A DNA stretch of 64,000 nucleotides from an uncultured Planctomycetota bacterium (lineage in GTDB: Bacteria > Planctomycetota > Planctomycetia > Isosphaerales > Isosphaeraceae), in the NCBI GenBank assembly GCA_963823665.1, contig CAWGMQ010000010.1, positions 992,001-1,056,000 on the forward strand, written 5' to 3'. The notes under the pieces were generated by a model. The model saw only the letters and a list, made by a program, of their open reading frames with translations. It had not been told where the DNA came from and made no database searches. Of this stretch, positions 15,992 to 51,389 are shown piece after piece. Position 1 is the first letter of the stretch, and each line of letters starts with the position of its first letter. The translations under genes were made by a program, and so were the position numbers.

Positions 15992-17195
15992 GGCCTGCCT
16001 CCACACTGCCGAGCATCTCCTGAGCCTTCTCCTTGATCCGCTTCAGGTCGCGGGCTTTGATTTTCAGTTCCTTGCTCACTAGCGGCTCAAATTGGGAGCT
16101 GAGATCCAGATCGCGAGCCAGCTCGAGCGCGGCGGCAAGCGGCAGCTCGTCGAGGTCAGGATCAGCCGTGACGAAATCAAGCAGCACGTAACCCAGATAT
16201 TCGCGCAGTCCACGATCCGAGAACTTGAGGCCCTCCAGCACCGCGGGATTCCTGGCGGTCGCGGGCTGGATGTCGGCAAAGAAGAGCTTCGCGTGACCGA
16301 GAACGGCGGGTGTCTGAAACCACTTCGGATAGAGCAGGTACTCGAGCAACTTCCTCGTGCCGACGGCGAGCCGCCTCTGACCGATCAGGTCGAGCTCATC
16401 CAGAGAGTCCGCGCCTTCGATCATGGTGCAGATCCGCGCGGCCGCGTTTTCGCGCTCGAGATGCCAGAGTTTGAGCGCGCGTGCCCTGATGAACATTTCA
16501 GGATGCGAAAGCCCATCGCTCGCGACGTCGCCCGCTGCGAAAATCTCGTCTGCTTGTTTGAGATAACCGGGGGCGCTCACCTGCGCCAAGCCTGTCTGAA
16601 TCTTGACCAGGCCCGCGATCACGGGATGCAACTCGCCCGTGGCACAGAGCGAGCCGCGATCGGCGAAGATCTCGGTGTAGAGCTGATATCGCCGGGCGGT
16701 CTGAAATTGACTGGCCACGGCGCGCGGATCGCTGCAACAAGCGTGGATCAGCCGGTCGGCGATCAGGAACTCGCCGTTCTCGCGTTCCCATAAGTGAAAG
16801 TGTGCCAGTTCATGACCGATCACGGATTTGAGCTCGTCCGCAGTCAGAAGCGTGAGCACGGATCCCGAGAAAACGATATGGCCTTCACCCGGTACATAGT
16901 AAAGTGTGGCGTTGGTGGCGAGATTGTTCTGCTCCTGATAAAGGGTGACCGGGATCTCCAGTTGCAGCCTGGCGGTGACCTCTATCACCGTGGTGTAAAG
17001 ATCAGGGTGCCCATCCGGGTCCAGGCGATACGTGGATTTGAGCAAGTCGCGGCGCAAATTGTCGGTAAAGTCGGCTTTGGCCTCGGCCGACGCAAACCAG
17101 TTCCACAGATCGCGCTCGTTCGCTTTGAGGTAATCCCTCAATTCGAGGTGATAGTCCAGCGGTGCGAGTTGCTCTGGGGCGGAATCCCGGGCCAA
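15984..17195 (-). CDS. M48-like zinc metallopeptidase (soluble, no signal peptide or TM seen)
   Basis: NATL..GHIVFSG..LTADELKSVIGHELAHF (HExxH), EIFADR and SHPE..IRARAL. TTG start at 17195 after AGGAGAG; stop overlaps the helicase start by 8 nt. Confidence 0.85.
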   Translation of the reverse strand: MARDSAPEQLAPLDYHLELRDYLKANERDLWNWFASAEAKADFTDNLRRDLLKSTYRLDPDGHPDLYTTVIEVTARLQLEIPVTLYQEQNNLATNATLYYVPGEGHIVFSGSVLTLLTADELKSVIGHELAHFHLWERENGEFLIADRLIHACCSDPRAVASQFQTARRYQLYTEIFADRGSLCATGELHPVIAGLVKIQTGLAQVSAPGYLKQADEIFAAGDVASDGLSHPEMFIRARALKLWHLERENAAARICTMIEGADSLDELDLIGQRRLAVGTRKLLEYLLYPKWFQTPAVLGHAKLFFADIQPATARNPAVLEGLKFSDRGLREYLGYVLLDFVTADPDLDELPLAAALELARDLDLSSQFEPLVSKELKIKARDLKRIKEKAQEMLGSVEAGRG

Positions 17196-29306: not shown

Positions 29307-32300
29307 TCACGGCTCGTTGGCGTTCAAGCCCGCTTTGAGGACCCTGTCGATCCGGAAGCGAATCTCCTTCAGGTGCGCGAGTGTTGTGTCGTCGAACTTG
29401 CGGGTTTTCTGCTCGAGGAGCTTGTCGATTTTCTGGCCGATCTCGTCGAGGTGCAACCTCGCGAGATTCTTGGCATCCGCCGGATAGGATGATGAGCCGC
29501 CCAGGACGACGACGAAGCTGTATCCGCCGTACGGGGAGCCGCTCTTCGGCCCGAGCACGATGTTGCTGAGCCGCTTGACGTACTCTCGCTGGAGATTTCG
29601 CCGAATCGTGGAAACCGCATAAGGCGACGAGCCCTCGGCCGGAGGCGAGGCGACTTCCGTGAAGATACCATCGGACAGCGTCCGGAAGATCTCGGCGATT
29701 TTGAGCGGATTGCTGCCGGGGTCGCTCTGGAGCTCCTGATTCTGGATTCGAGAGAGCACGCCCGGATCGAGGCACTGGTCCACCACGATCTCCTGGATGC
29801 CCAGGATCATCCCGTAGAGCGGGTAATCGGTATTGCCGAAGTACGAGTAGCGGCTGTCCTGCCAGGACTCGGTCATAAGCTTCCGGAGCAAGGCAGGGGA
29901 GAACTGAAACGCCTTGTCGGCAAGAATATAGTCGACCAGGAACTTGAGCGCCTCGCGCTGCCTGGCACCGGAGATCGGTATGACAGGGTCACGCGCCTTG
30001 TCTTTCGCCTTGTGGTCGCGGTTGACCGACTGGCCGCCGATGTACTCGGCCGAAAGGTACGCGCCGTTGCCGAACTGGCTGATGCACGACATGAATGCGC
30101 TGCGAAGCCGAGCCCACGACTCGCCGTCCTTGACGACTTTCTGATCGAGATCCTTGAGCAGCTCGGAGGCCATCGTCATGCGCATCTTGCCGTAGGCCAG
30201 CGTGTCGGAAGTCAGGTCGTAGGTGTTGACCTGGGGGTCGTTGCTCATGAAGTCGTCATCGGTGGCGAAGGCCAGGTCCGGTTCTGGAGAGCGCTCGGCG
30301 ATCTTCTTGAGCCCGGCCTCCTCGCCGCCTTCGGGGGTGGCATAGGCATATTCAATCGCCCAGTAGTCATAGGGGCCAATGGTTGTCGAGGCGTAGTCGC
30401 CTTGTTTCTGGCCCTTGGGGGCGATGTTGATCGGGTTGTAATCCATCACGCTGCCCGTCATTCCCTTGACGCGGGTGATCGACGTGTCGTTGATCTGGTC
30501 GGGCCTCAGCATGATGCTGGCCTTGAAATTGTGTCGCAGCCCGAGGGAATGGCCGACTTCGTGCATCACCACTTCCTTGATCGCCTGCCCCAGAAATCCC
30601 TCCGGCAGCTTGAGCTCCTTTTCCTTTTTCTCCTTTTCGGCTTTCTCCTTCTCGGCTTTGTCTTTTTCTTCCTTTTGCTTGTCCGAGTCCTTGTCTTTGG
30701 CCTTGGCCTCGTCGGGAGTGTCCGTCTCCAGCATTGCCAGCGCGAGGGTGGCGAAGCGCATCTCGTGGGACTTGGCGGCGCAGTAATTACACGCGGCGAG
30801 CCGGCCGTGGCTCAGCCGCTGGCTCAACTGGGCCTGGATCGGGTCCCAACCGGAAGGAACCACGTCAACGGCCAGGGGTGACGTGCCGTCCGGCCCACGG
30901 TTGTTGCCCAGGATCGCCGCGTTCATGGCGGCGGCGCGGAGGGTGCCCGGTGGCGGCACGGGGAGCCCGAATCCGTGCTTCATCGCCATGATCGGGCTCA
31001 AGACCTCGGCCATTGCCAGCGGAACCGGCCCGGCGGAGGGAGTCGGCGCCCGATGCGCTGCCGGTCGGGACCGGTACCCCCATCAAGAACGCGTATTCCT
31101 CTTGCCAGGTCTTGATCCAACTGGCGTCGAAGATCACGTCCCCGTCGATCATCTCGCCGGTGAGCGGATTGCTGCGCAGAGCCGACATGGCGAAGGTCGA
31201 GCCCGTGGTGATCCAGCGCAGCGTACAGTAGTTGATGTCTTCGGGCTCGAAGTCGTCGCGCTCATGCTGCCAGCGGACGGCGATCGCATCCTTGAAGCCG
31301 ATCTTCTCGAACGCCTTGTTCCACTCGAGAATTCCCTCCTGCACGTATGGCCGATACTCCTCGGGCACGTTGTCTTCGATATACCACGTGATCTGCTTGC
31401 GGGGGGGCGAGAGCTTGGCGCTCGGGTTCGCTTTCTCCAGCCGCCAGCGGTTGATCATGCGCTTGGCGTTGGTTTCCGGATCAGGGTTGGCGAAGTCGGT
31501 CACGGCGTTCAAGAAGTGCCCCACCCGGTAATCGGCCGTGCGAGGATGGTAACCTGGGTCGGGCGCCTTGCAGAGGCTGTAGTGCAGGACCAGGGTGATT
31601 CCCCGCGCGTCGACTACCGGAGAGGCGCCACCGAAGTAGCGCCGGTAACGGGCGCCAGTGAAGGTTGCCTCGACCTGGATCTCGTCGTTATCGGGATAGG
31701 TGCGGATCTTGAACCAGCGCGAGCGACTGCGATCCAGGCCACCGAAGCCGACCTGGGCGAAGTCGGTCAGGAAGATGTCGGCGAAGTCGATCACCAGCGT
31801 CGCGCCCTGGGGGTTGATCGAGAGGATCGGCAGGGACATGAGGATCGAGTCGGTGTAATTCTGCTTGACGGCCTTGTCGAGCGGCGTGCCCGACGGAGCG
31901 GTGAAATGGATGTTCTTGCGAACGAGCTGCAGATTGTCGCCGATCCGGCGGAAGGCGATCACCCACTCATCGCCGAAGTTGAGCGGCTGGCCCGCACTGG
32001 CGGACCCTCGGGCGATCACCATCGGCGCGAGTATCGGCTGCTCGAGCTGCTGGGGCTTGATCTCTGCATAAAGATGCTGATCTTTTTGGTGTAACGTGAT
32101 GAATCCCTCGTGCTTCGTTGCCCCTTTGGTCAGATCTGCGAAGTTCTGAAGCCGGGAGGGCTCAGCGCCGCGAGCGCCTGGCCTGGTGAATTGCCTGATC
32201 TCGAATGCCGGCGGCTCGGGCTCGGCCGGGTCTTGCATGGGAAACTCGAAAGCGGCAGACGATCGCGTGCTGCACACGCCCAGGACCAACAGAAAGCCGA

Positions 32301-32328
32301 TTTGTGTTAAATATGATCGCATCGTCAT
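29307..32328 (-). CDS. Secreted zinc-dependent metalloprotease (DUF5117/EcxA-like metzincin; frameshift ~31030)
   Basis: HEVGHSLGLRHNF plus Met-turn SVMDY and IGPYDYWAIEYAY in ORF 29307..31013; signal peptide, R.AD.RVGHF, INRWRLEK and NPLTGEMIDGD in ORF 30865..32358. Confidence 0.88.
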
Positions 32329-32466
32329 TGCCTTGTCCTTGCTTGGAGCTGCTCTCAAGAATGGCCAGGAATAAGGAACCCGGCCGGACCGTGGCAGGTT
32401 CTCCCGAATAGGTTGAGTTTATTATCCAGCAGAGAGCAGTCGTCTGACAAGCGTCTGTCACCCATT

Positions 32467-38160: not shown

Positions 38161-40032
38161 CTACGGCTTCTCCGGCAGGGCCAGGGCCAGCGCCGCGGTG
38201 GCCCAGCCGCTCGCGGCCACGGCGATGAACTGGTCCTTACCGTAGGGGAAGCCGCTCTCGAAGTAGAGCTGGAACGGGTTGCTCCGGGAGGCGACGAACC
38301 AGGTGCCGTCAGCCTTCTGCGTGCGCAGCAAGAATGCGACCCCGCGCCGGTACGCCGGATCGTCGGTCGCCAATCGGCCGGCCTGGTGCAGCGCCACCAG
38401 CGCGGAGCCGGTGGCATACGCATCGCTTGTCAGCTTGTCGGTCTGCGCCCAGCCCCCGTCGTTTCGCTGGGCCGCCAGCAGGTCCCTGCCGGCGACCTCG
38501 AGCTCGGCGGGCGACGCGTCGGCATACTTCAGGCCCCAGAGCCGGAAGACGCGGTCCTCGGTGTCGACCGGGCTGCTCGCGGCCAGCCAGGCGCGGGCCC
38601 GGCGGGCCCGATCGTTCACGGCGCCGGTCCGACTCTTGGTGCTGTAATACCGCAACGCCCGGAGCGCCAGGGCCGTGGCCGTGAAAGGGCTCGCCTCGAT
38701 CGGCGGACGCCGCGAGGTCTCGGTCCAATGGTCGCGATCGGGATCGGACTTCAGCAGGTATTCCGTCACCACGGCGGTGACCTCGTCGGCGGGACTCCCG
38801 GCGGCTTCGAGCGTCCATAACGCGTAGGCCGCCCGGGTCGCCCCGCCGGGCTGCCCGCGCCCCTTGCGATACTGCCCCAGCGCGCTCTCGAGGTCGGCCA
38901 GCGTAAGGGCCATCGTGCCCTCGAAGGCCTCCTCATCGATCGCGAGGCCGCGGGTGCGGGCGATCTGCAGGGCGACGAGCGGGACCGCGTGATTGTGGCA
39001 CGAGAAGCAGTCACGCTTCTCGGCGTAGACGATCAGGCCCTTCTGCAACGGCGGCAGGGCCTTCGCCACCCCCGCCCGGATCCGATCGGGCGTGGCATCA
39101 TCGGGCTTCGCGACCTCTCCCGGGTCCTTCCCGGGCTCGCGGGCCTGGGGCCGGTCCGTCACCGCTGTCGCCGCGGTGCGGTCGAGATGTCGCAGTCGAT
39201 CGAGTCCGGCGGCGGTGATCTTCGTGTCGTCGTGCTTCAACCGCTTGAGGTGCGGGAGCGACTCGAGCGCGACGAGGCCGGCGTCGGTCACCCGGGTGCC
39301 CTTGAGGGAGAGTTCTTCCAGGTCAGTCAGTCCGACCAGGTGGGCGAGGCCCGCGTCGGTGATCTCATTGCCATCGAGCGCGAGCCGCCGCAACCGAGAG
39401 AGGCCGCGCACGCTGCGCGAGCCCCGCGTCGGTGATCTTCAACCCGATCAGGTCGAGCTCCTCGAGACTCGCCAGGTTCGCCAGGGCCGCCAGCCTGGAA
39501 TCGGTGAGATCCAGCTCGACGAGGCTGAGCGCCTTCAGGTGCTTGAGCGATGCGAGATGGGACAGCCCCGGGCCGGACACCTCGCACGAACCCACGAGCA
39601 GCTTCTCCAGGCCACTCATCGTCGCGACGTGCTCGAGCCCTCGATCGGTCACCCTGGTGTCGTAGACGACGAGGCTACGCAAGCCCCCCCCTCGCAGCCG
39701 GGCCAGCCCGGCGTCGGAGATCCGCGTCTGGGTCAGGTCGAGGGTCCGCAGCGACGACAGGCCGCGCAGCTCGCCGAGCTGATCGTCCGTGACGCGCGTC
39801 GTGTTCAGCCGGATCTCGACGATCGGCCGCCCGGTCGCCTGTTCGTCAAGCCGGACTTCGCCGCCCAGTCGCGCGACCAGCGCGACGGCGCGATCCCGCA
39901 CGGGATCGCCGCCGGGTGGGCCGGCTTGCACATCCCCGGGGGTCGGGCAAACGAGGCGCAGAAGATCGGGATGAGCCCGCCAAGCTGCCTCAGACCGCCC
40001 GCGAGCCGCCAAGTCCTCATCCCGTCGCTCAT
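38161..40032 (-). CDS. LRR repeats fused to a prenyltransferase/squalene-cyclase-like alpha-barrel domain (frameshifts ~39930 and ~39415)
   Basis: Repeats LxxLDLxxTxITDAGLxxL in ORFs 39365..40063 and 38161..39411; CFSCHNH; QW-like AQRNDGGW and TQKADGTW; SDAYATG; FESGFPYGKDQFI. Confidence 0.8.
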
Positions 40033-40621
40033 ACGATGGCCTCCGCCGATGGAGACATGTCACGAAGATTCATCTCGCAACCGTATGGGACACTGTTCGG
40101 CCGCGGTTTGCAAGGGGCGATGGGCGGGATTCCGCTCTGACCCGAAGATCAATTCGCGAGCGTCCGGAAGTGGAAAGTGTCGAGGTCGTCCGCCCGGCGC
40201 AGGATCCGGATCGGCGGCTCGTCCGGCCGAATCTCCAGGTTTGCCGCGACGGAAGGCGAAATCGCGTTTTGACCCGATTGTCCAGTAGCGAGCCGCGCAC
40301 CCACCGAAAACCGAAACGCATCCCGCATTCCGGGCACCGCTGCCGTCTGAGACTACAACGCAAGGCATGAACGGACAATGCGTTGCAATTGATCGCGTCG
40401 TGAATCGCCGACTCGCGAAGCGCTGCAACTCGTCGACTCAAGCGGCCGGCAAACGGCCTCGTGATGCGAAGTCGCGACACGACAACACCGCTCATCCGTT
40501 TAGAACGTACTACGCTAGATGCATCGCGCGTGCGCGGCCGAATGCTTGAAGGTCGCCGCCGGACGCCGCGGGTTCCGACGACCAGGGCGCAACAGGCTTG
40601 GCTGCCTCGAGGAGAGCAACG

Positions 40622-42781
40622 ATGAGACGAAGACCTCGCCCGGGCGCTCGCAAAAAGAACGCCATCCGCGCGCCGCGCCGATTTCTGGGCGACGTGACCG
40701 GTCTCGAGAAAAAGCCGCTCCGCACCGGCATGGCCCTTGACAGCGTGGGCCTCAATTTCATCGCTGCTCATGAGCTGGGGCCTGCCGGTGACCAGGCCGG
40801 CACGTTTACCGAAACCCCCGCGGGACCGAGCGGGGGTTTTGCGCAGGAGCCATACACGAACCCCGCCGGCAACGCCGCGATCGGATATGGCCATCTTCTG
40901 CACGACGGCAATGTCGATGCCACGGACCATGCAAACTATCCAACCCCAATCGATCAGGCGCAGGCCACTGCGCTCCTGACCGGCGACACGGCGAAGGCCG
41001 TCGCCGCCGTTAACAGCGACGTCAAGATCGTTTTGACCCAGGATCAATTCGATGCAATCGTCGACTTCGCCTACAACGAGGGGACCGGCGTCTTCGAGAA
41101 GTCGGCCCTGCTCAAGGATCTCAACGACGACGATCTCGGAAAGGTGCCGGCCCAGCTCGAGCGATGGGTTTACGGCGCGGTCGGTGGCAATGAAGGGGTG
41201 ATTCCCGGCCTGGTCAACCGGCGAAATGACGAATCCAACTTGTTTGAGGGACACATCAACAATGATAAGACAGGTGACGGCCCGGCCACCGGTTTCTCGC
41301 CAGGCCACCCCGGGAACACGTTCGGCGGTATCCACAACCGAGGCTGCAGTCCGGGCAGCGGTGAAACGGGCACCGGCGGCGGCGCCGGCAATATCGGCGG
41401 CGGTGGATTTCACACGGGCGTTGGCGGCGGCGCCATCACGCCGATCAATAGCACACTCGCGCTCAGGTATCTCAATTCTCTCGCGGGCTATACAACGTGC
41501 GACGGCTATTCACCGTTCAGCAACGGGGCATTGTACAACGGGGCATCGCCGTACGCCGGCAGCACGCCTGTTAATGGCAGCTCTGCCCCTTATGGGACGT
41601 CGCCGTTCTGCTATTCGTCGCCCAGCGGAGCCTCGCCGTACAACGATTATTACTCCGTGACCGGCAGCCCCGGCGGCGGAGGCGGCACAGGTGGCAGTGG
41701 AACCGCTGGTGGCGGCGGCGGGACGCACGGCGGCGGTGGTACGGTTGGCGGCGGAGGCGGCACGGGTGGTGGTGGGACCGTTGGCGGCGGAGGGGGGACG
41801 TTCGGCGGCGGCACAGTCGGTGGTGGTACGGTTGGCGGCGGAGGCGGCACGGGTGGTGGTGGGACCGTTGGAGGAGGAGGCGGCACGGGTGGCGGCGGGC
41901 CCACCGGAGGAGGAGGAGGTACTGGTGGCGGGGGCGGCACCGGCGGCGGTGGAGGAAATACAGGCGGCGGTGGCGGAAATACAGGCGGCGGTGGCGGAAA
42001 TACAGGCGGCGGTGGAGGAGGCGACACCGGAGGTGGCGGCGGTGGGGACACCGGAGGTGGCGGTGGAGGAGACTCCGGCGGTGGCGGTGGCAGTGATGTC
42101 ATTGCCTATGGCGCCGGCGCCATGACTCGTGCCGTGGTTGGGCAAGTCCAGCAAGCTGCCGCCGGGGTCACCCCGTACGGCGGGGGAGGGGGGGTCGTCC
42201 CCGCCGGCACCGCGGATGGCGGCTTGAAGTTTAGCCGAGGCCTCCTCGAGGATCACGGCGGAGGCGGAGGCGGCATGATGCACGACGGCGGCATGCGCGG
42301 CGCCCAGGGAACCGGCGATTTCGCACACGGCTTCAGCTCGGAAGGCTTCTGGCTGGACACGAACGGCACCGCGACTCTTCTCACGCCGGGTTACGCGGCC
42401 TCCACCAGCAACGCGGACTTGAATGCGATCACCCCGATTTCACCTGAGATCTCAAACCCGCCGAGCTCGACGTCGATGGCCATGAGTTCTGCCGAGCTGC
42501 ACGACGAGCCTGGCGTCTCGAGCCACGGAACAGATGAAGTTGTGTCCAACGATGATCGATCAACCGCCGGCGAGGGCAAGCTGCCGACCGAAGACAACGG
42601 CTCCACGACGGGCGAGGGTGACCCATCGGCGGAGGACAGTCTTCTGGCGGCAGGCGAGCGCCGTTCAGGAAACGAGGGCGATCCGCTCACGTCGCTCGAA
42701 CACACAGAATCGGTCACGCCTGATCACGTTTCACCGGCCGTGGACGCGGCGCTCAAACAGAATTCTGCGAGATCGGCTTGA
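40622..42781 (+). CDS. Exported GH24 (phage-lysozyme-like) domain protein with Tyr/Ser/Pro-rich segment, polyglycine tract and acidic tail
   Basis: GAGGAG RBS then MRRRPR..RRFLGDVTGLEKKPLRT (planctomycete leader-like); GLNFIAAHE..PYTNPAGNAAIGYGHLL, LTQDQFDAIVDFAYNEG..SALLKDLN and RWVY..PGLVNRRNDESNLF. Confidence 0.85.
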   Translation: MRRRPRPGARKKNAIRAPRRFLGDVTGLEKKPLRTGMALDSVGLNFIAAHELGPAGDQAGTFTETPAGPSGGFAQEPYTNPAGNAAIGYGHLLHDGNVDATDHANYPTPIDQAQATALLTGDTAKAVAAVNSDVKIVLTQDQFDAIVDFAYNEGTGVFEKSALLKDLNDDDLGKVPAQLERWVYGAVGGNEGVIPGLVNRRNDESNLFEGHINNDKTGDGPATGFSPGHPGNTFGGIHNRGCSPGSGETGTGGGAGNIGGGGFHTGVGGGAITPINSTLALRYLNSLAGYTTCDGYSPFSNGALYNGASPYAGSTPVNGSSAPYGTSPFCYSSPSGASPYNDYYSVTGSPGGGGGTGGSGTAGGGGGTHGGGGTVGGGGGTGGGGTVGGGGGTFGGGTVGGGTVGGGGGTGGGGTVGGGGGTGGGGPTGGGGGTGGGGGTGGGGGNTGGGGGNTGGGGGNTGGGGGGDTGGGGGGDTGGGGGGDSGGGGGSDVIAYGAGAMTRAVVGQVQQAAAGVTPYGGGGGVVPAGTADGGLKFSRGLLEDHGGGGGGMMHDGGMRGAQGTGDFAHGFSSEGFWLDTNGTATLLTPGYAASTSNADLNAITPISPEISNPPSSTSMAMSSAELHDEPGVSSHGTDEVVSNDDRSTAGEGKLPTEDNGSTTGEGDPSAEDSLLAAGERRSGNEGDPLTSLEHTESVTPDHVSPAVDAALKQNSARSA
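41670..42092 (+). repeat. Coding Gly-rich tandem repeats (T/NT/DT/TV followed by G3-6)
   Basis: 50-bp duplication at 41735-41784 and 41822-41871; 21-bp unit ggaaatacaggcggcggtgg(c/a) x3 from 41954; 24-bp DTGGGGGG units from ~42023. Confidence 0.95.
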
Positions 42782-42803
42782 TCGTCGAGAAAAGGGCGCG
42801 ACC

Positions 42804-45164
42804 GTGATTTCGACCAAAGACCTCTTTGCACATGCGACGGAGATGCACCGGGCCGGGAGAATCGATGTTGCGCTGACGTCGTTCATGAAGATCGTCGCAC
42901 GCGAGCCAGCGAATCCCGAGGCGCTTTACTGGATTGGCTGCATTCACAACCAGCGTGCCGAGTACGATCGTGCGGTCGAGGTTCTCAAGCGGGCGATCGT
43001 GGAACGCCCGGGCGTGCCGTCGTTCCATGTCGCGCTGGCCGAATCGTGCAGGAACCTCGGCGGGCTCAAGCGAGCGGCCGGCTGCTGCCGTACGGCGCTG
43101 AAGCTCAAGCCGGACTACCCCGAGGCACTGTGCACACTTGGTCTGGTGCTCCAGGCGCTCGGCCGTCCCGGTGAGGCGGCCGATCAGTTCCGGCGTGCGC
43201 TCGAGCTGCGGCCTGATTTCGCGCAGGCTCACCGGGATCTCGCGATGGTGCTTCGGGAGCTGGGCCATCGGGACCAGGCGATTGAACACCTGCGCTGCGC
43301 GGTTGACCTGGCGCCCAGGTACGCGGCGGCGCGGAGCGGCCTCTGCCTGATGCTGCTCGACTGTGGCGAGCCCGATGAGGCCTTGATCCACGGCCAGGAG
43401 GCGGTCCGGCTTCAGCCCGACCTGGCGGTCCATCATCACAATCTCGGAAACGTGCTCGAACGCCTCGACCGGCCGGACGAGGCGCGCGGCGCCTTTCTGG
43501 AAGCGCTGCGACTTGACCCGGAGCTGGCGCACAGCCATTTGCAGGTCGGAATGAACCTGAGGGCTCGAGGGCAGCTCGTGGAGGCGGAGCCGTGGTTCAA
43601 GCAGGCACTTGAGATCAATCCCGAGAACGCCTGGTTCTGGGAACAGCTTGCAGACCTCGAGCTGGAGCGTCAGGAGCACGCTGCGGCGATCCCGTGCTGG
43701 GAGCGAGCGATCGAGCTATCGGCGAAGGAGCGGGCGGGCCCGTACATCAGCCTGGGCTGGTCGCTTCACGAGGAGGGGCGGCTTACCGAGGCTTTTGAGC
43801 GGTACCGGACGGCGCTTCGGTTGCAGCCGGAGGCTGTGATGGCCCACATCAACATGGGAGGAATCTACGAGGAGCTCGGAGACATGGCGGCGGCGGAGGC
43901 CGCCTACCGCGCGGCGGTGGCAATCCAACCGAATTTCGGCCTCGCGTACGCCAGGCTAGCAACACTCTTGCGCGGTCGATTGCCCGCCCCCGACCGCGCC
44001 GCGATGGAAGAGCGATTGGCCGATCCGGAGACGAACCCATCGGCGCGGACGCGGCTGCTTTTCGCCCTCGGCCTTGTGCTGGACGCCGATGGTGAGTACG
44101 GGCGCGCCGCATTGTGCGCGCGGCAGGCCAACGCGCTCAACATGGAGCGAGAGCGACGGGCCCGCGGCTACACACCCCCTCTGCACGTGCAGTACGTGGA
44201 CGGTGTGATCAACGGGTTCACGCCCGCGTTTTTCGAGCGGGCGGCCGGTGGGGGATCAGATGACATCCGCCTGGTGTTCGTATTCGGTTTGCCGCGCTCG
44301 GGCACCACGCTCGTCGAGCAAATCCTCGCCAGCCATTCGCGCGTCCTGGGAGCAGGCGAGCTGAAGCTTGTCCGCCAGTCGTTTGATGCGATCCCGACAG
44401 TTCTCGAGAGCCCTGGCAGTGCGATCGAGGGCATCAAAGAGCTCGATGCAATCGCGGTCGAGCGACTGGCCGCGCAGCATCTGGCGCGGCTCGAAAGGCT
44501 GGTCGAGAATCGCCCCGCCGCGCGGATCGTCGACAAGATGCCGGACAATTATATCTATTTGGGGCTCATCGCGGCCATGTTTCCCCGGGCCGTTTTCATT
44601 CACTGCCGGCGCGATCTCCGGGATGTTGCACTGTCGACGTGGCTCACCGATTTCCGGCCCGAGAACATCCCCTGGGCCAGCGAACCCACTTACATAGGCT
44701 CGCGTTTTGAACAGTATCTGCGGCTCTTGGACCACTGGCGAAGCGTCATGCCGGCAAAGATCCACGAGGTGAATTACGAGGAAACGGTAGCGGACCTCGA
44801 AGGGGCCGCGAGGCGCCTGACGGAGGCGTGCGGCCTCGAATTCGAGCCACGGTGCCTGGACTTCCATCGCACGGAACGACGCGTCAAGACCGCGAGTCTT
44901 GGCCAGGTGCGTCAGCCAATTTATACGCACTCAGTCGGCCGATGGCGGAACTATGTCCCCGAGCTGGATGACCTGTTCCGGGCGATCCCGGCCGCAGCGC
45001 CCTGCACGGAATCGGCGAGCAATGGCCAGATCGATCAAGGATCGGTCATATCGCGATCCGGCAGTGCTCCGGAGCATCGAATGCCGGATGAGGTTCTCCC
45101 ACGCGACTTTTCTCAGGGTCGCCGGACGAAGGCCCCGCAAAGCCTCGAAACGCATGAGGTGTAA
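42804..45164 (+). CDS. TPR-repeat sulfotransferase (PAPS-dependent, Sulfotransfer_3/TPST-like)
   Basis: About 11 TPRs, then 5'-PSB FVFGLPRSGTTLVEQILASH, DKMPDN, 3'-PB RRDLRDVALS, YEETV and TASLGQVRQPIY..SVGRW. GTG start; no signal peptide. Confidence 0.92.
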   Translation: MISTKDLFAHATEMHRAGRIDVALTSFMKIVAREPANPEALYWIGCIHNQRAEYDRAVEVLKRAIVERPGVPSFHVALAESCRNLGGLKRAAGCCRTALKLKPDYPEALCTLGLVLQALGRPGEAADQFRRALELRPDFAQAHRDLAMVLRELGHRDQAIEHLRCAVDLAPRYAAARSGLCLMLLDCGEPDEALIHGQEAVRLQPDLAVHHHNLGNVLERLDRPDEARGAFLEALRLDPELAHSHLQVGMNLRARGQLVEAEPWFKQALEINPENAWFWEQLADLELERQEHAAAIPCWERAIELSAKERAGPYISLGWSLHEEGRLTEAFERYRTALRLQPEAVMAHINMGGIYEELGDMAAAEAAYRAAVAIQPNFGLAYARLATLLRGRLPAPDRAAMEERLADPETNPSARTRLLFALGLVLDADGEYGRAALCARQANALNMERERRARGYTPPLHVQYVDGVINGFTPAFFERAAGGGSDDIRLVFVFGLPRSGTTLVEQILASHSRVLGAGELKLVRQSFDAIPTVLESPGSAIEGIKELDAIAVERLAAQHLARLERLVENRPAARIVDKMPDNYIYLGLIAAMFPRAVFIHCRRDLRDVALSTWLTDFRPENIPWASEPTYIGSRFEQYLRLLDHWRSVMPAKIHEVNYEETVADLEGAARRLTEACGLEFEPRCLDFHRTERRVKTASLGQVRQPIYTHSVGRWRNYVPELDDLFRAIPAAAPCTESASNGQIDQGSVISRSGSAPEHRMPDEVLPRDFSQGRRTKAPQSLETHEV

Positions 45165-45168
45165 TACC

Positions 45169-47820
45169 ATGTCGAGGAGATCGCGCGGCAGTCGGCATCT
45201 GGTCCATCGCTTCCGTGCCGGCATCGAGCTGTTCGAGGGGCGGACGCTGCTTTCGGTCACCGCGAGCGCATTCAGCGAGAATGTGCTCGCGAACATGCCA
45301 TCCACGATCGAGCTGGGCCCCTACGTCGCCGACAGCGACCCGGGTGCGGCCTTGACGTTCGAGCTCGTCTCGACGACCACGAGCGACGGCGGCGCCGTCA
45401 GCGTGAACGCGGCGACCGGGCTCGTCAACTATACGCCGGCCGCCCTTTCGCCACCAACCGACTCGTTTGAGTATAGTGCCCGTGACTCCGACGGCGATTC
45501 TTCGAGCACGGTGACGGTCACGCTCAACCTGTCGTCACTGGCTGCCAACCCCGTCATCGTCAGCGAGGTCGAGGCGCAATCAACGATCGGACTCTCGATC
45601 GTGAATCTGCCGGGTGCCGTGCAGGATAGCGCGAGCAAACCGGCTTACACGTTCTCAAACGCTCTGGTCGCAAACGGCGCCGGCGGTACGGTGAGCCTGA
45701 CCGACACCAAAGAGGGCGCGTTCACATACACACCACCGAGCCCGAGCTTCACGGGAAATGTGATCATCTCCTACCAGGTCGCGGATGGAACGGGGACCGA
45801 AAGCTCCACAGTGCAGATCGACATCGGCCCGATTGCCGCCGACCCCGTCGTCTGGGGCACTCTCTCGAGCTCGAATGCGACGATTCCGTCGACCAATGTT
45901 CCAAGCTTGGTCGATCGAATCCATGATGTCAGCACACACCCGACTTATACATTTTCCAGTTCGATGATCCCTGCCGGAGAGGGAACGATCTCGAACTTGA
46001 ACCCGGCGACGGGGGCCTTCACGTATACTGCGCCCGACTCGACATTCAGCGGAGTGGTGCCGGTGCAGTATTCGGTGAGCAACGGCACGAATTCGACTTC
46101 GGGAAGCGTGACGATCGTTGTCGCGCCGCTGGTAACCCAACCGGTCACGGTCACCGAGCTGGATCATCAGACGAGCGTCTCGCTCGAGATCTTGAACCTG
46201 ACGGGAGCCGTGCAGGATTCTTCGAGCAGCCCCACGTACTCTTTCTCGAACCTGAGGATTGTCGACGGTGGGGGCTCGGTCGCTGCGGGGGGCTTCACCG
46301 ATACCACGACGGGGACCTTCACCTACAATCTGCCCGGCTCGGCAACGCCGCACCCGGTGCACATCGGATACACGGTCAGCGACGGCACGAACACGGCCAA
46401 CGGGGTTGTGACCATCCAGCTCGTGGGCATCGAGGTCAGCGCCGCGAATTTCGCGGTTCTGGAGAACACCCCGTCGAGCCTTCCCGCGCTTGTGGGCCGG
46501 ATTGTTGATGTCAACAGCACGCCGGCGTTCACATTTTCGAGCCCGTCGGTCCCCCTGGGTGACGGCACGGTCGTGTTCACGGACACGGCCAAAGGCGTCC
46601 TGAGCTACAGTCCCCCGGGTCCGACGTTCACGGGCACCTTTCCAGTTCAATACACCGTGAGCGACGGGACGAACGCGACGACCGGTGTGCTCAATCTGTC
46701 GGTGGCGGCGCTGGTCACGAGTCCGTTGCTCATTCCGTCGGCGTTGCAGACCGGGCCGACCGACGTGCCCAGTCTGGTGGCGAGTGGACACGTGGAGGAC
46801 GTCGCGGGCAGTCCAGTGTACACCTTCTCGAACTTGATGGTCGCGCCGGGCGACGGCACGGTGAAGCTCACGAATGCGGCTTCCGGCGCGTTCACGTACA
46901 CGCCCCCTTCCGACTCGTTTTTCGGCGTTGTGCAGGTGAGCTATACCGTCACAGACGGTGCGCTGCACTCCGCGAGCGGAAGCGTGGTCATCAATGTCGA
47001 AGAAACGATTCGCCCGGCTAGTGACGGCCCGCTTGCGGCGGTCGCGGGCCGCGCGTTCGTGATTCCCGCGGCCGAGCTCCTGCGGAACGACGTCGCTTCT
47101 CCCAACGGCCTGAAGCCTTCGATCGGCGCCGTGGGCGAGGCGACGAACGGGAAGGTGGTGCTGAACGCCGACGGGTCCGTCACATTCACCCCGACAACCG
47201 CGGGCCCGGCGAGCTTTGAATACGAGGACACCGACGCCGACCACGACGCCAGCCTCGCGGCGACGGTGAGACTGAGCGTCAAGATCGAGCCCACGATCTA
47301 CTGGAGCGATCCCGGAGACATCGTCCACGGCACGCCGCTTTCCGGAACGCAGCTCGATGCCTTCGCGAGCGTACCGGGATCGTTCACGTACAGCCCGCAG
47401 GCGCGCGCGATCCTGCCGGTCGGCAACGGTCAAACTCTTTCTGTCAACTTCACGCCTTTCGACACCACGGATTTCACGGGAGCCTCTGCCGCAGTCATCA
47501 TCAACGTCCGACCGGCCCCGCCCCCGGGCCTGTCAGTCCTGACGCATTCGTTCTCCGGCCGGCACAGAAGGAGCATCGGAGGCGCTATCGCGCAGCTTAA
47601 AACGACCTTGTCAAAGCCGAATGCAGCCTATTACAGCGCACTGGTCAACTGGGGTGACGGGGCTGTCGCCCGCGGCAAGCTTGTCAAGTCGGGTCGACAC
47701 GGCTTCAAGGTGAACGCGACTCATGTTTACCGCGTCGCCGGGACGTATCGTGCCACTTTGACGATCTCCGATCCGCTGGGGGATAGCGTGACCGAGCCGT
47801 TTACGGTTTTTGTGCACTGA
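45169..47820 (+). CDS. Exported cadherin-like/Ig-like tandem repeat surface protein with MBG-like and PKD-like C-terminal domains
   Basis: Leader MSRRSR..HRFRAGIELFEGRTLLS (planctomycete extracellular motif); about 7 repeats of ~97 aa YTFS..GTV..GAFTYTPP..F.G..YTVSDGT; PTIYWSDPGDIVHGTPLSGTQLDA; VNWGDG..THVY..GTY. Confidence 0.85.
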   Translation: MSRRSRGSRHLVHRFRAGIELFEGRTLLSVTASAFSENVLANMPSTIELGPYVADSDPGAALTFELVSTTTSDGGAVSVNAATGLVNYTPAALSPPTDSFEYSARDSDGDSSSTVTVTLNLSSLAANPVIVSEVEAQSTIGLSIVNLPGAVQDSASKPAYTFSNALVANGAGGTVSLTDTKEGAFTYTPPSPSFTGNVIISYQVADGTGTESSTVQIDIGPIAADPVVWGTLSSSNATIPSTNVPSLVDRIHDVSTHPTYTFSSSMIPAGEGTISNLNPATGAFTYTAPDSTFSGVVPVQYSVSNGTNSTSGSVTIVVAPLVTQPVTVTELDHQTSVSLEILNLTGAVQDSSSSPTYSFSNLRIVDGGGSVAAGGFTDTTTGTFTYNLPGSATPHPVHIGYTVSDGTNTANGVVTIQLVGIEVSAANFAVLENTPSSLPALVGRIVDVNSTPAFTFSSPSVPLGDGTVVFTDTAKGVLSYSPPGPTFTGTFPVQYTVSDGTNATTGVLNLSVAALVTSPLLIPSALQTGPTDVPSLVASGHVEDVAGSPVYTFSNLMVAPGDGTVKLTNAASGAFTYTPPSDSFFGVVQVSYTVTDGALHSASGSVVINVEETIRPASDGPLAAVAGRAFVIPAAELLRNDVASPNGLKPSIGAVGEATNGKVVLNADGSVTFTPTTAGPASFEYEDTDADHDASLAATVRLSVKIEPTIYWSDPGDIVHGTPLSGTQLDAFASVPGSFTYSPQARAILPVGNGQTLSVNFTPFDTTDFTGASAAVIINVRPAPPPGLSVLTHSFSGRHRRSIGGAIAQLKTTLSKPNAAYYSALVNWGDGAVARGKLVKSGRHGFKVNATHVYRVAGTYRATLTISDPLGDSVTEPFTVFVH

Positions 47821-47893
47821 GCGGAGTGTAACGACGGGGCGGCCTTCCAGTTCTGCTGTTTTCGGGAAAACTAGCGATTGGTCGTCCCGCACC

Positions 47894-47902
47894 TGATACA
47901 AT
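47894..47902 (+). promoter_or_regulatory. Extended -10 promoter candidate
   Basis: TGaTACAAT about 90 nt upstream of the ATG at 47992. Confidence 0.4.
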
Positions 47903-47991
47903 CTTGGTCAGACGAGTTCACCATGGCTGACCGCGGGGCTGAATCCCGCGTCGGCGTAGCAATGCCGCTATCGGGCCAATCGAGGATAGAG

Positions 47992-48924
47992 ATGGCAAAT
48001 CAACCGTCGAGTGTCAAGAACCAGGTCGGTCCGTTTGTTGCGGGCTCAACCATGAGCGACTTGATCGCCTTGGCCAGGATCGAGAACTTCGGCCTGCGCG
48101 TAGTCAACGCCCCGGAACAACTGCGCGACCCGGTCCGACAGCGCTACCAGGATCTGAAGGGGGCAGCCAGAGAGTATTTCTGCGACGACGACCAGTCCGC
48201 GTCGTTGCTGTTGCAGAAGACGGGCGACTCGGAATACATACCCGATTTCATTCAGTACGTGTACTGTTGGCTCGTTGAGGACCGCCTCTGCGGATTGATC
48301 CTCTCCGGCGTGAGCACGGACGTGGGGAATCACGAGCAGATCGACGGGCAAGAGAGTGCCTTCTGGGATCAATCGGCCGAGATTGCCCAGGCGCTTTCGA
48401 GCAAATACACTCAGAGCCCGGCTGCGCTCGTGAACTATTTCAATTTCACCGTGTACCCCGGGCTTCCGAGAGTTCCGGGCATCGATCCGCAGGGCGTCTT
48501 TTCGGCATTCCCGCGACTGGTGAAGAGCGAAGACGGTCACGAGCCGCCCGCGAGAATCGAAACGCACTACTGGGGCCCTGCCGTCTTGCTGCCTTCCGAC
48601 AGGGAGATTGGAGCGGAGGTTGCCACCACTGCCGCGCATACCAGCGAAGCGGCGCGGCGAATATGCTGCAACGAACAGTGGATCGTCGTATGTCTTCACG
48701 CTGTGGAGCGGTATGTGCGCACGATTGAGTCGCTGCACGTCTACACGAAGCTGATTTACATTTCCCGGGAGGTGATGGACGAGCTGGGCCGGAAGTTGAT
48801 TGCCCAGCGGGGCGCACAGGTGGAGGCCGAGGCCCGCGCCGAGATCGAGCGTTTCAAGCAATCGCGCTTCAAGTCCGAGGAGGAGAAGCAAGCGCGCATC
48901 TCGAAATTGTCCCAGATACTCTGA
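47992..48924 (+). CDS. Hypothetical protein with C-terminal coiled-coil
   Basis: GAGGA RBS before ATG 47992; protein-like composition; no family recognised. Confidence 0.65.
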   Translation: MANQPSSVKNQVGPFVAGSTMSDLIALARIENFGLRVVNAPEQLRDPVRQRYQDLKGAAREYFCDDDQSASLLLQKTGDSEYIPDFIQYVYCWLVEDRLCGLILSGVSTDVGNHEQIDGQESAFWDQSAEIAQALSSKYTQSPAALVNYFNFTVYPGLPRVPGIDPQGVFSAFPRLVKSEDGHEPPARIETHYWGPAVLLPSDREIGAEVATTAAHTSEAARRICCNEQWIVVCLHAVERYVRTIESLHVYTKLIYISREVMDELGRKLIAQRGAQVEAEARAEIERFKQSRFKSEEEKQARISKLSQIL

Positions 48925-49062: not shown

Positions 49063-51389
49063 CTAGTGTGCTTGGCCCGGGGCAGCGGTATCTCCGGGGT
49101 GGTAGCGGCGCTCGCTGTGGTCTGCGACATCCGCCTGCGCGTACCAGGATGGCTTGAACTGTTTCTTGGCATACAACTGAGCCTGGTCGAACCAGTGGGG
49201 CGAGGCGGGATCACCCGATTGGCCGAATTGAAGAATCGTCTTCGCTTTGGGCGGGTCTGCGAGCTCGACGGCCGCGACGAACGAGTGACCGGCCACGCCA
49301 TAGCGGCGAGTCTGGCCGGCTTGAGGTAGCGTGTAAAAGTTGAAGACGACGCCAAGTGGCCCCGGTGCGCCGGCGATTGGCAAGCTCGGCTGATCGTCGC
49401 GAAACGCGCCTCTACCGAGCAGATCGATCTGCGATCCGTGGATTCTCTGCAGGCGATTGATCTCGCCCCACGCCACCTTCCAGGTGCCGCGCGTCTTCTC
49501 CAGGTCGGCCAGGGTTGCTTCGAGGGCGCGGACGCGGGGATAGTTCAGCATGTCGCGCTTCGCGGCCATCTTGAGGGCCCGGTCGTACGTTTCGGTGAAG
49601 AGCGTCATCGCGACGGAATCGACCGCGCTGGTGCAGTCCCAATTCTTGAGCAGATCAACCGGCTCCTTGAGCTTGGCGGCGCGGTCCGCGTCAGCAGCTC
49701 GAAGCGTATCCCATTCTTTCACGAGATCGGGGATCCGAAGCTCGGCTTCGAGGATCTTGGTGTCGAATCCGTCTCGAGTCCAGTCGTCGTACGCAAATCT
49801 CGCCTTGGACAGAAGGATGCGCCGCGAGATCCGGGCCCGTGGGTTGTCGCGTTCGCGTTCGGTGGCCAACAAGTACGGGGGAAAGTCGGTCTGCTTGGGG
49901 TTCTCATCCACCAGATCGGCGCGCAATTCCTTGCCCACCGGCGTTGTGGACAGAGGTGACTGATTGCAGTTCTGCAAGAAGCCGCACTTGGGGTTCTCCA
50001 CTTGCGGTAGCTCGTCGAAGCGGTGATAGCCCTGCCAATCCGTTTCCGGGTTCGAGCCGTCGACCGGTTTTGTCCAATCGAACTTCGTCGATCGTCTGGG
50101 CACGGCACCGTTGTAGACGTAGAAGATGTTGCCGAGGGTATCGGCCACGATTGCGTTGAACATCGGCAGGTTGCACGGGCGCATGGCGTCCTTGAATTCG
50201 GCCACGCTCTTGGCCCGTCCCATGGCATAGGCCTGGTCGATTGCTCCACTATCTTCGAGCTTGGCGAGCCTGACAGCGAGCGGCTTGCCGTCGCGGACGG
50301 CGACCAGTGGTCCCTGGTGAGTCTTGGTGAAGCGGAACCGGCGACGTTTGACTCCGTTTCCGTCCTTGACGAGAATCTCGTCCGTCCAGGCGGTGGCCTG
50401 TTTCGTGCCGGTGCCGCAGCGGTACTTGAGACGATCGGCTTTGTCGTCGAACGTCATGCTGTAGAGATCGACGACGTCGGGGTTGTTGACGGTGTGGCTC
50501 CAGGCGATGTGGCCGTTGTATCCGATGGAGGGAAACGGTGAGCCGAAGAAGCAAGCTCCCAGTAGATTCCAGCCCTGGTCGCTCGTGAGGTGCCCCTCGT
50601 ACCACTGCCCCGGTCCGAAGAACGGCTGGTGTGGGTTTATGAACATCAGTGCTTTTCCTGACACCGATTTCTCGGGGCGGACGGCCCACATGTTGGAACC
50701 GACGTGCTCCGACATGCTCTGGCGGTCTGCCTCCATCGCCAGCAACTCGGTGCGCAAGTGCCGGGGAAACTCGACTGCGCCGGCCTGGCCGTCGCGAATC
50801 TCCTCCACGGCCGCGAGGATGTCGGAGGCGCGCCAGGCCCGACTTGCCGTAGATGAAGGACTGATAGAGGATGAAGCGGCGAAAGGCGAGCGGATGCCAC
50901 GGCTCGAAATGCGTGATGAGCCGGGGCTTCTGCTCAGAATGGGTGGCAAGGTAATAGTTCAAGCCCACGGCGGTCGCCTGGCAGATTTCCCGCGTTTTCG
51001 GCGAAGCATTCTTGTACTCTTCCATCGAAAGAGCCGGAATTTCGAGGGCGCGGTTCAAGAGGTCATCGGGCAGCGACTTCTCGCCGTAGACCTCGGCTGC
51101 GCGGCCCAGCGAGCGGAGATAACTGTCTTCGACCTGCCAGAAGTAATCTTCGGCCTGGGCATAAATGAATCCAAAGACGCATGCCGCATCGGTTGGCCCG
51201 TAGACGTGCGGAACGCCGAACGTGTCCCGCTCGATCGTGACACTCTTCGCGATCGCAGCCGCCCGGGCTGCCGCTTCAGGTGCCGCCCGGTCGTCACCTC
51301 GCGCGTAGACAGACGGCTGCCGCGACCAAGCCCGAGCCGGCCAGGAGGGCGAGAATAAAAGCCGGGAGCGACCTCAAAGAAGAATTCAT
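49063..51389 (-). CDS. Penicillin acylase-family (S45, Ntn-hydrolase) amidase, secreted (frameshifts ~51285, ~51060, ~50835)
   Basis: Signal peptide MNSSLRSLPAFILALLAG; VTIERDTFGVPHVYG; AQAEDYF; catalytic GSNMWAV; NPHQPF; GQSGDPASPHWFDQA. Confidence 0.88.

Follow-up and report, generated by a model that had tools for sequence, protein, structure and literature searches.

A 64,000-nucleotide stretch of DNA from an uncultured planctomycete of the family Isosphaeraceae (contig CAWGMQ010000010.1; the whole stretch is called the window below) contains, at positions 40622 to 47820, three adjacent genes that form a unit conserved within the family. They encode a protein with a phage-type muramidase domain, a sulfotransferase fused to tetratricopeptide repeats (TPRs), and a protein built of cadherin-like repeats. 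We propose, with a probability of roughly 45%, that the sulfotransferase acts in the cytoplasm, where its TPRs would guide O-sulfation of one or both neighbouring gene products before their leader-directed export. The products at the surface would be a peptidoglycan-binding head on a tether and a cadherin-like stalk. The genes are placed as follows.

40622..42781, + strand: gene 1, 719 aa, ATG start, AGGAG at 40610-40614
42804..45164, + strand: gene 2, 786 aa, GTG start; TPR-sulfotransferase without a signal or transmembrane segment
45169..47820, + strand: gene 3, 883 aa; leader, ~7 Big_9/Cadherin_5 (tandem-95) repeats of 95-100 aa and a basic PKD-like C-terminal domain

As the first-pass annotation of this DNA had described, the genes are co-oriented and intact, with no frameshifts or internal stops and with intergenic gaps of 22 and 4 nt; a codon model selects the identical three frames. 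Of the profiles that the annotation had suggested searching with, Phage_lysozyme, Sulfotransfer_3 and cadherin-like/Big_9 gave matches. Gene 2 also starts with GTG in the orthologous loci L024, L025 and L034, and longer upstream starts for genes 2 and 3 were rejected on the basis of this conserved GTG and of the position of the gene 3 leader. Hydropathy profiles revealed no hydrophobic N-terminal segment in any of the three proteins. A scan for promoters and terminators returned chance-level counts (1 promoter versus 1.2 expected; 5 terminators versus 6.2 expected).

A conserved three-gene unit

We searched 121 Isosphaeraceae genomes, that is, 120 besides the host, many of them incomplete. Gene 1 has orthologs in 5 of the 120 (49-73% over residues ~5-220), four more genomes contain only ordinary GH24 matches at 35-42%, and gene 3 was found at E ≤ 1e-25 in the same five genomes plus G079. 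The gene 1 and gene 3 orthologs occur beside an orthologous TPR-sulfotransferase. Gene order is contiguous in L025, L026 and L034, two of which are frameshifted; in L024/L096 and L095/L145 the unit is broken at contig ends yet consistent, with L024 beginning in the tail of gene 1 and L095 ending in the start of a gene 2-like TPR protein. Locus and genome handles overlap, and each was counted once. The genes that flank the unit vary between lineages, and the grouping exceeds chance because the unit recurs in five other genomes with different flanks. In a tree of the sulfotransferases, the five unit enzymes form one clade (support 97*), as do four of them in a second tree (100/99). Ratios of nonsynonymous to synonymous substitution (dN/dS) relative to close orthologs were ~0.13-0.22 for the muramidase domain, the Tyr/Ser segment of gene 1, the sulfotransferase domain and gene 3. 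We conclude that the three genes form a conserved unit. One additional gene 3-like match, L368, stops at a contig edge.

A variant of the unit, L188 (G079:C510:781-9708, - strand), keeps the arrangement of the three genes, but its first gene carries an Enc34/PHA02564-type endolysin head where gene 1 has GH24; it is the single case of an alternative head among the 121 genomes. Its first gene is a 724-aa frame with a leader, an enzyme-like head, a Gly-rich region and an acidic Ser/Thr tail; its second encodes a TPR-sulfotransferase (56% in the domain) and its third a Big_9/Cadherin_5 protein that has a leader and matches gene 3 at 31% over 623 aa, with intergenic gaps of ~200 nt. Similarity between the L188 head and gene 1 was undetectable. 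The head matched phrog_873 endolysin (E 4e-24), 9vvp (E 7.6e-16) and 7q47, the Enc34 endolysin (E 2.2e-07), and its Trp/Tyr/Glu signature seems to be intact. The family is muralytic (7q47; PMC8943055); in L188 the head is joined to a leader and a Gly-rich tether, not to transmembrane helices. Because the L188 enzyme groups only weakly with the unit enzymes in the best tree (support 38/59), L188 may have arisen either by a head swap or by independent assembly.

Gene 2 encodes an enzyme of the TPST structural class

The domains of gene 2 lie as follows.

42813..44039, + strand: ~11-12 TPR repeats (Pfam), in which Asn is conserved across the family at positions 6 and 9 of the repeat
44259..44993, + strand: sulfotransferase domain dependent on 3'-phosphoadenosine 5'-phosphosulfate (PAPS), of the tyrosylprotein sulfotransferase (TPST)/CurM class, with R498, E519, K578 and S698 (near-)invariant

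That the middle gene encodes a signal-less fusion of TPRs to a PAPS sulfotransferase, as the first-pass annotation had claimed, was borne out by Pfam, by sequence motifs and by hydropathy. PF13469 (Sulfotransfer_3) matches residues 491-682 with E 1e-37, alongside the TPR matches, and both PAPS-binding motifs are conserved: the 5'-phosphosulfate-binding GLPRSGTT (495-502) and the 3'-phosphate-binding R603-S611. Among 142 family domains (155 minus 13 with stops or truncation), R498, K578 and S698 occur in every one and E519 in 141. R498, E519 and K578 align with R78, E99 and K158 of TPST2, which are the catalytic residues of that enzyme (PMC10951654). In the TPR array, the conserved Asn residues N213 and N216 are kept and those at 145 and 179 are changed.

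Searched against the PDB, the sulfotransferase profile matched TPSTs best (E 2e-15 to 2e-11), followed by the CurM (E 4e-11) and OLS (E 3e-9) sulfotransferases. The predicted model of gene 2, with a mean confidence score (pLDDT) of 94.3, gave Z scores of 19.3-19.7 to TPST1, tick TPST and TPST2, with a root-mean-square deviation of 2.8-3.0 over 232-233 aligned residues at ~20% identity; Z was 16.9 to the OLS sulfotransferase and at most 12 to all others, including glycan and small-molecule enzymes. Foldseek TM(target) values to human TPSTs were 0.59-0.67. The model thus places gene 2 in the TPST structural class with a full set of catalytic residues. The host genome encodes two adenosine 5'-phosphosulfate (APS) kinases. 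Since gene 2 lacks a signal, the enzyme and its PAPS would both be cytoplasmic, and a protein substrate would be modified before export.

A phage-type muramidase head with altered active-site positions

Gene 1 comprises the following parts.

40622..40729, + strand: basic leader with a degenerate LExRxLLS-type end (LEKKPLRT) and no h-region (ortholog motifs; maximum KD19 0.79)
40730..41251, + strand: GH24 domain, ~residues 37-210; E51 (T4 lysozyme E11) kept, N80 at D20, A86 at T26
40775..40834, + strand: 20-residue insertion L52-G71 directly after the catalytic Glu, confined to gene 1's small family
41477..41671, + strand: conserved Tyr/Ser/Gly-rich segment, residues 286-350, with 9 Tyr and 4 GxSP[YF] repeats; candidate sulfate acceptor
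41672..42097, + strand: Gly-rich tether by composition, 73% Gly, residues 351-492
42422..42778, + strand: acidic Ser/Thr-rich tail by composition, weakly conserved among orthologs, residues 601-719

PF00959 (Phage_lysozyme) matches residues 71-204 of gene 1 (E 3.8e-31; 108.5 bits versus a cut-off of 22.3), the domain matches PDB endolysins down to E 1e-18, and E51, which is invariant, aligns with the helix-end catalytic Glu of generic GH24 proteins. At the other two active-site positions gene 1 has N80 and A86 in place of the Asp or Cys and the Thr expected at positions 20 and 26, a change at two of three positions that the first-pass annotation does not mention. By comparison, position 20 is occupied by D or C in 126 of the 129 generic GH24 matches that could be parsed (out of 141), and position 26 by T or S in 128 of 129. 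Members of the gene 1 family carry N or D at position 20. At position 26 they carry A, V, I, L or S, except for the distant ortholog L095, which alone has Thr and keeps the Asp too. Sequencing error was rejected as the source of N80, A86 or the degenerate leader, as all three are identical in P0133, a protein 90% identical to gene 1. The family is small: in a set of 1.84 billion sequences it has 9 representatives at E ≤ 1e-30, and a metagenome scan with the muramidase alignment, covering 37 of 64 parts, recovered 1 family member among 57 loci. An AlphaFold model of the domain, built from a 4-row alignment, reached a pLDDT of 42.6 and was discarded.

Because of the 20-residue insert and the Asp-to-Asn and Thr-to-Ala changes, the domain is likely to be attenuated despite the kept Glu, as in SpmX, and by the same analogy it probably binds peptidoglycan and cuts weakly; the insert itself might shift activity in either direction. 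The label 'lytic effector' proposed at first is weakened by the eroded triad, and 'peptidoglycan-binding or weakly hydrolytic' fits better. One alternative is that the gene 1 muramidase is antibacterial and has full activity, as a toxic head that can be swapped and is displayed with the gene 3 stalk; gene 2 would then serve as its chaperone, or would activate or guard it by sulfation. Such a role would be in keeping with the invariance of E51, with the Asp and Thr of L095, with a report that D20L merely attenuates P22 lysozyme (10.1101/418723), and with the seemingly complete Trp/Tyr/Glu set of the L188 head, whose exchange recalls polymorphic effectors. The near-universal D/C and T/S of generic GH24 proteins set against N, A and the insert argue against it, however, as do the finding of two head types and no more and the lack of a recognisable immunity gene in the unit, and we judge this alternative quite unlikely.

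GH24 proteins are typically phage enzymes, and the gene 1 domain matches phrog_7 with E 9e-34; together with the two changed triad positions, this might suggest a prophage lysin in decay that lies beside genes 2 and 3 by accident. Against such decay, dN/dS in the domain was ~0.13-0.16 relative to close orthologs (0.39 relative to the distant L095), the unit is conserved in six genomes, the domain is fused to a leader, and Pfam detected no phage gene among the 20 other window open reading frames (ORFs) that were scanned, a subset of those in the window. Gene 1 does not sit in a phage lysis cassette, its immediate neighbours being genes 2 and 3. The GH24 domain of gene 1 is under purifying selection, and this selection and the conserved unit largely refute a prophage remnant, which we consider highly improbable.

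Seven gene 1 orthologs contain 2-5 copies of the GxSP[YF] repeat. Gene 1-type proteins also share a C-terminal VDxA(L/I)-like motif (VDAAL at 42740-42760 of the window; VDLAI and VDLAL in L095 and L188), a possible C-terminal signal that is missing from some orthologs.

Gene 3 and the export leaders

Gene 3 opens with its leader.

45169..45255, + strand: basic leader with IELFEGRTLLS; orthologs have IEELEGRTLLS, IEELEARALLS and IEELESRNLLS

Big_9 and Cadherin_5 (Pfam) each match seven stretches of gene 3, with E 1.2e-43 and 1.2e-36, and the tandem-95 model NF012211 scores 139 bits against a cut-off of 90; a PKD_4 match over residues 809-880 falls below its cut-off. The proposal that gene 3 encodes an adhesin therefore holds as far as the tandem Ig/cadherin-like stalk repeats go, but Pfam and NCBIfam recognised no adhesive tip or surface anchor domain.

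Both flanking genes had been credited with planctomycete-type leaders, and the strings quoted for them are present. The published consensus is RRLxxExLExRxLLA (PMC8567305). Gene 3 comes near it, its orthologs having LEGRTLLS, LEARALLS and LESRNLLS, but the LEKKPLRT of gene 1 is degenerate, its ortholog forms being LEHRPLLS, LERKPLFS and LESRRLLS. The leader models PF07595 and NF012209 match neither gene 1 nor gene 3, even as short fragments at E ≤ 10, and their best score was 12.8 bits (cut-off 25.5), on the ortholog L095. These models also miss two clear leaders from other genes of the host genome and are therefore insensitive here. A purpose-built leader hidden Markov model (HMM) trained on 28 leaders gave -1.9 bits for gene 1 and 9.7 bits for gene 3 and found 2 of 6 plausible leaders in random stretches; as this model too was insensitive, a fixed regular expression was applied to test sets and controls alike. 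On this evidence of motif and orthology, the N-terminus of gene 1 would be a leader by orthology, and export of both proteins is predicted.

Leader genes beside TPR-sulfotransferase paralogs

TPR-fused sulfotransferases are common in the Isosphaeraceae, with related domains in 70 of the 120 other family genomes, but a sample of 200 genomes from across the phylum contained them in only 16. The host genome has 22 PF13469 matches, and 13 matches to the gene 2 domain at E ≤ 1e-40. Our survey of their neighbourhoods covered 100 regions around matches among the 150 listed of 243, pooled with the earlier loci and including a few from outside the family; it yielded 155 distinct domain ends, of which 5 with less than 800 nt downstream were dropped. 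A same-strand leader begins within 800 nt downstream of 19 of the remaining 150 ends. Controls gave 7 of 754 non-sulfotransferase gene ends at the same loci and 7 of 960 random windows of the host genome (one a false match). In the host genome, a leader gene follows 5 of 14 sulfotransferase ends. When mapped on the tree (17 leader rows among 142), leader adjacency required 11 changes, 6 of them forced by starred branches. In a leader-independent test of composition, surface-like genes made up 25 of 119 same-strand neighbours (p 0.018), random stretches gave 16 of 169, and the test as a whole indicated little enrichment.

The survey for leader-bearing neighbours that the first-pass annotation had called for thus showed an excess over controls, but most enzymes lack such a neighbour: 131 of the 150 have no leader gene just downstream, and the link is therefore clade-specific, not general. 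The association of leaders with TPR-sulfotransferases is real for some clades, including the one studied here, and is no family-wide rule. The idea of a dedicated protein-sulfation module draws support from the conserved unit, the TPST class of the enzyme, the APS kinases and this clade-limited adjacency, but is set back by the majority of paralogs without a leader gene.

Proposed mechanism and alternatives

In our favoured mechanism, the signal-less TPST-like enzyme would move sulfate from PAPS, in the cytoplasm, onto hydroxyls of its neighbours while the TPR superhelix holds the still-unfolded substrate. Acceptors would be Tyr or Ser/Thr residues of low-complexity regions, most plausibly those of the gene 1 GxSP[YF] repeats. 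The modified proteins could then be exported by way of their planctomycete-type leaders, gene 1 supplying a peptidoglycan-binding or weakly hydrolytic head, derived from a phage lysin and carried on a long Gly-rich tether, and gene 3 an Ig/cadherin-like stalk, and both might work at the cell surface, where they would touch other cells or cell-wall debris. We infer that the genes are co-transcribed, that one or both neighbours are the substrate and are sulfated, that the proteins are exported, that the muramidase is attenuated and that the proteins have a role at the surface.

Beyond the silence of the published leader models and the 131 paralogs without a leader gene, several findings weigh against this mechanism. 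First, TPST acceptor sites usually lie in an acidic context, and each of the 18 Tyr residues of gene 1 has at most 2 acidic residues within 5 positions; in gene 3, 3 of 24 Tyr have at least 3. Second, neither gene 3 nor the L188 counterpart of gene 1 has the GxSP[YF] repeats. Third, no leader gene was found within 1500 nt at any of 18 loci outside the family, and of the 19 leader cases within the survey, 6 are copies of this unit and 4 belong to one other ortholog group, kin that are not independent; when the cases are collapsed into 8 partner types, the odds ratio drops from 15 to 6.5, and p-values across kin overstate. Fourth, without regard to strand, the composition test scored 35 of 242 adjacent genes as surface-like versus 29 of 254 distal ones (p 0.35), with controls inflated by frameshift fragments. 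Fifth, the CurM and OLS sulfotransferases, which serve polyketide pathways, belong to the same class as gene 2, and the catalytic Arg/Glu/Lys set also aligns in CurM and so is not exclusive to TPSTs; the catalytic set is therefore no proof of a protein substrate. Finally, some paralogs adjoin glycosyltransferases.

Several of these findings would also fit a non-protein acceptor. On that account, gene 2 sulfates a nucleotide- or lipid-linked sugar, a glycolipid or a small hydroxy compound used at the surface, and the operon reflects co-regulation only, although a sulfated glycan might be attached to the neighbours later. CurM and OLS as the next-closest structures, paralogs near glycosyl- or sugar transferases (L150, L031, L067, L190, L205 and L225) and the non-acidic Tyr sites of gene 1 are consistent with this account. 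The Z scores of glycan and small-molecule sulfotransferases nonetheless fall well short of the 19-20 reached by TPSTs, no glycosyltransferase occurs in the unit, and TPRs, whose established role is to bind protein partners, suggest in an array of 11-12 a polypeptide partner. We therefore regard a non-protein acceptor as unlikely.

Gene 2 might instead be a general protein sulfotransferase that acts in trans on many surface proteins, its position owed to inheritance and co-expression. The abundance of such domains in the host and its family, the scarcity of leader neighbours among the paralogs and the weak composition test are what a general enzyme would predict. By contrast, the three genes stay joined while their flanks change, orthologs of genes 1 and 3 accompany no other enzyme clade in the 121 genomes that were searched, and expansion into many paralogs suits partner-specific enzymes; a general enzyme seems to us decidedly unlikely.

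TPR-guided sulfation of the neighbouring proteins could be one instance of a wider pattern, in which the Isosphaeraceae expanded TPR-guided TPST-like enzymes into a pathway that O-sulfates large surface proteins, each paralog serving co-encoded, leader-exported partners, with an exchangeable phage-derived head (GH24 or Enc34-type) beside a cadherin-like stalk for bacterial contact in the present case. We hold this wider pattern to be rather doubtful.

We found no substrate assignment for TPR-fused sulfotransferases in the literature searched. The unit points to two proteins as candidate substrates and to one segment as a candidate acceptor, and so makes the question of sulfation testable. If the proposed mechanism is true, TPST-type modification would extend to large bacterial surface proteins and be tied to the poorly understood planctomycete export leader, a phage GH24 lysin would have been domesticated a second, independent time, and the orthologs would form a natural series in which the active site is intact in L095 and eroded in others, with a swapped head in L188.

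Comparison with known systems

Protein sulfation has rarely been documented in bacteria, and the literature that we found on bacterial protein tyrosine sulfation centres on Xanthomonas RaxST. In the raxX-raxSTAB locus, the tyrosylprotein sulfotransferase RaxST is encoded with its exported substrate (PMC6637879). Compared by description rather than by sequence, our unit is like raxX-raxST in placing a PAPS-dependent TPST-like enzyme beside an exported (here predicted) substrate and in drawing PAPS from housekeeping genes. It differs in that gene 2 carries 11-12 TPRs, in that the candidate substrates are leader-bearing proteins of 719 and 883 aa rather than a 60-residue peptide, and in having neither a small precursor nor a RaxAB-type peptidase/ABC exporter. 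Without precursor and exporter, the unit is no member of the raxX-raxST type, though it would work alike, and the term 'export module' used in the first-pass annotation is not sustained, as the unit contains no transporter.

Eukaryotic TPST1, TPST2 and tick TPST (5wri, 3ap3 and 8w5z) are the closest solved structures and have the same catalytic Arg/Glu/Lys. Gene 2 differs from them in its ~20% identity, its lack of a membrane anchor, its N-terminal TPR array and the non-acidic context of its candidate acceptor Tyr residues.

Iyer et al. 2010 (PMC2938197) predicted bacterial operons that pair sulfotransferases with secreted Gly-rich, collagen-like or tail-collar proteins. Their proposal that the co-encoded secreted Gly-rich proteins are the sulfated substrates parallels ours, but their operons include hydroxylases and often PAPS synthetases, and this unit has neither. 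The part of that paper outside its supplement makes no mention that we found of planctomycetes, TPR-fused sulfotransferases or a lysin head.

The SpmX study (10.1101/418723) reported that, at D20, T4 lysozyme retains activity only with D20C/A, and that loss of the Glu abolishes activity. Like SpmX of the Caulobacterales, gene 1 is a chromosomal phage-type GH24 protein with the Glu kept, D20 and T26 eroded and a long low-complexity region fused to the domain. Unlike SpmX, it has no transmembrane segments, a planctomycete leader, the 20-residue insert, and N and A as the substitutions; the SpmX model NF051871 scores 56.3 bits on gene 1 against a cut-off of 700. We infer that gene 1 represents a co-option of GH24 independent of SpmX, and it may work like the SpmX muramidase domain without being SpmX.

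The leaders resemble those of planctomycete proteins of the PF07595/NF012209 type, in which a basic stretch and an LExRxLL-type motif precede repeat-rich proteins (PMC8567305). In T. immobilis, 52 genes bear such leaders, and of 20 proteins detected, 8 were found solely in the fraction soluble in sodium dodecyl sulfate (SDS); the export route is a prediction there as well, and the main text does not mention sulfotransferases (PMC8567305). Our literature search, which covered papers without their supplements (that of PMC2938197 may list such neighbourhoods), found no description of TPR-sulfotransferases beside planctomycete leader proteins. The combination may thus be new, as had been supposed, but the idea behind it has precedents in RaxST, in the operons of Iyer et al. 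and in SpmX.

Other paralog loci and the rest of the window

Several paralog loci have other neighbours. At ten loci (L105, L106, L107, L167, L170, L172, L179, L190, L192 and L213), TPR-sulfotransferases lie directly 3' of DUF1559 prepilin-type genes; these DUF1559-associated (N_methyl + SBP_bac_10) enzymes form a well-supported clade and have possible pilin-like substrates. At L036:3840-8260, three flagellin genes in tandem come after the TPR-sulfotransferase, an arrangement that suggests modification of flagellin. At L235:397-9290, the TPR-sulfotransferase lies directly 5' of a C39-peptidase ABC transporter (a 1788-aa frame) and 3' of a 474-aa gene without a Pfam match, a locus that recalls raxSTAB or clusters for ribosomally synthesized and post-translationally modified peptides (RiPPs). 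Two or three leader-bearing genes with unrelated bodies surround the enzyme in L189, L198, L200 and L183. In L144, L146, L154 and L163, small PEP-CTERM-like exported genes lie directly 3' of the TPR-sulfotransferase (with a Pfam match in L163 only), and in L146 and L154 very Gly-rich genes also lie upstream. L150 has a group 1 glycosyltransferase between two TPR-sulfotransferases, together with a convergent TPR gene, and may be a locus that combines glycosylation with sulfation.

The host assembly (G000) comprises 16.46 Mb in 12 contigs, with 91.9% completeness and 3.5% contamination; this size is unusually large for a bacterium, and a congener has 16.1 Mb. Just 3' of gene 3 and on the same strand is a 348-aa ORF without an NCBIfam or Pfam match, which was not recognised beside the orthologous units inspected. 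Elsewhere in the window, four probable single genes are split into two or three frames each, likely by assembly frameshifts. These features are listed here.

47878-48924, + strand: 348-aa ORF
10813-16006, - strand: DUF4011 helicase, split
29307-32358, - strand: DUF5117/DUF4953 Met-zincin, split
38161-40063, - strand: leucine-rich repeats plus cyclase-like repeats, split
49063-51256, - strand: penicillin amidase, split

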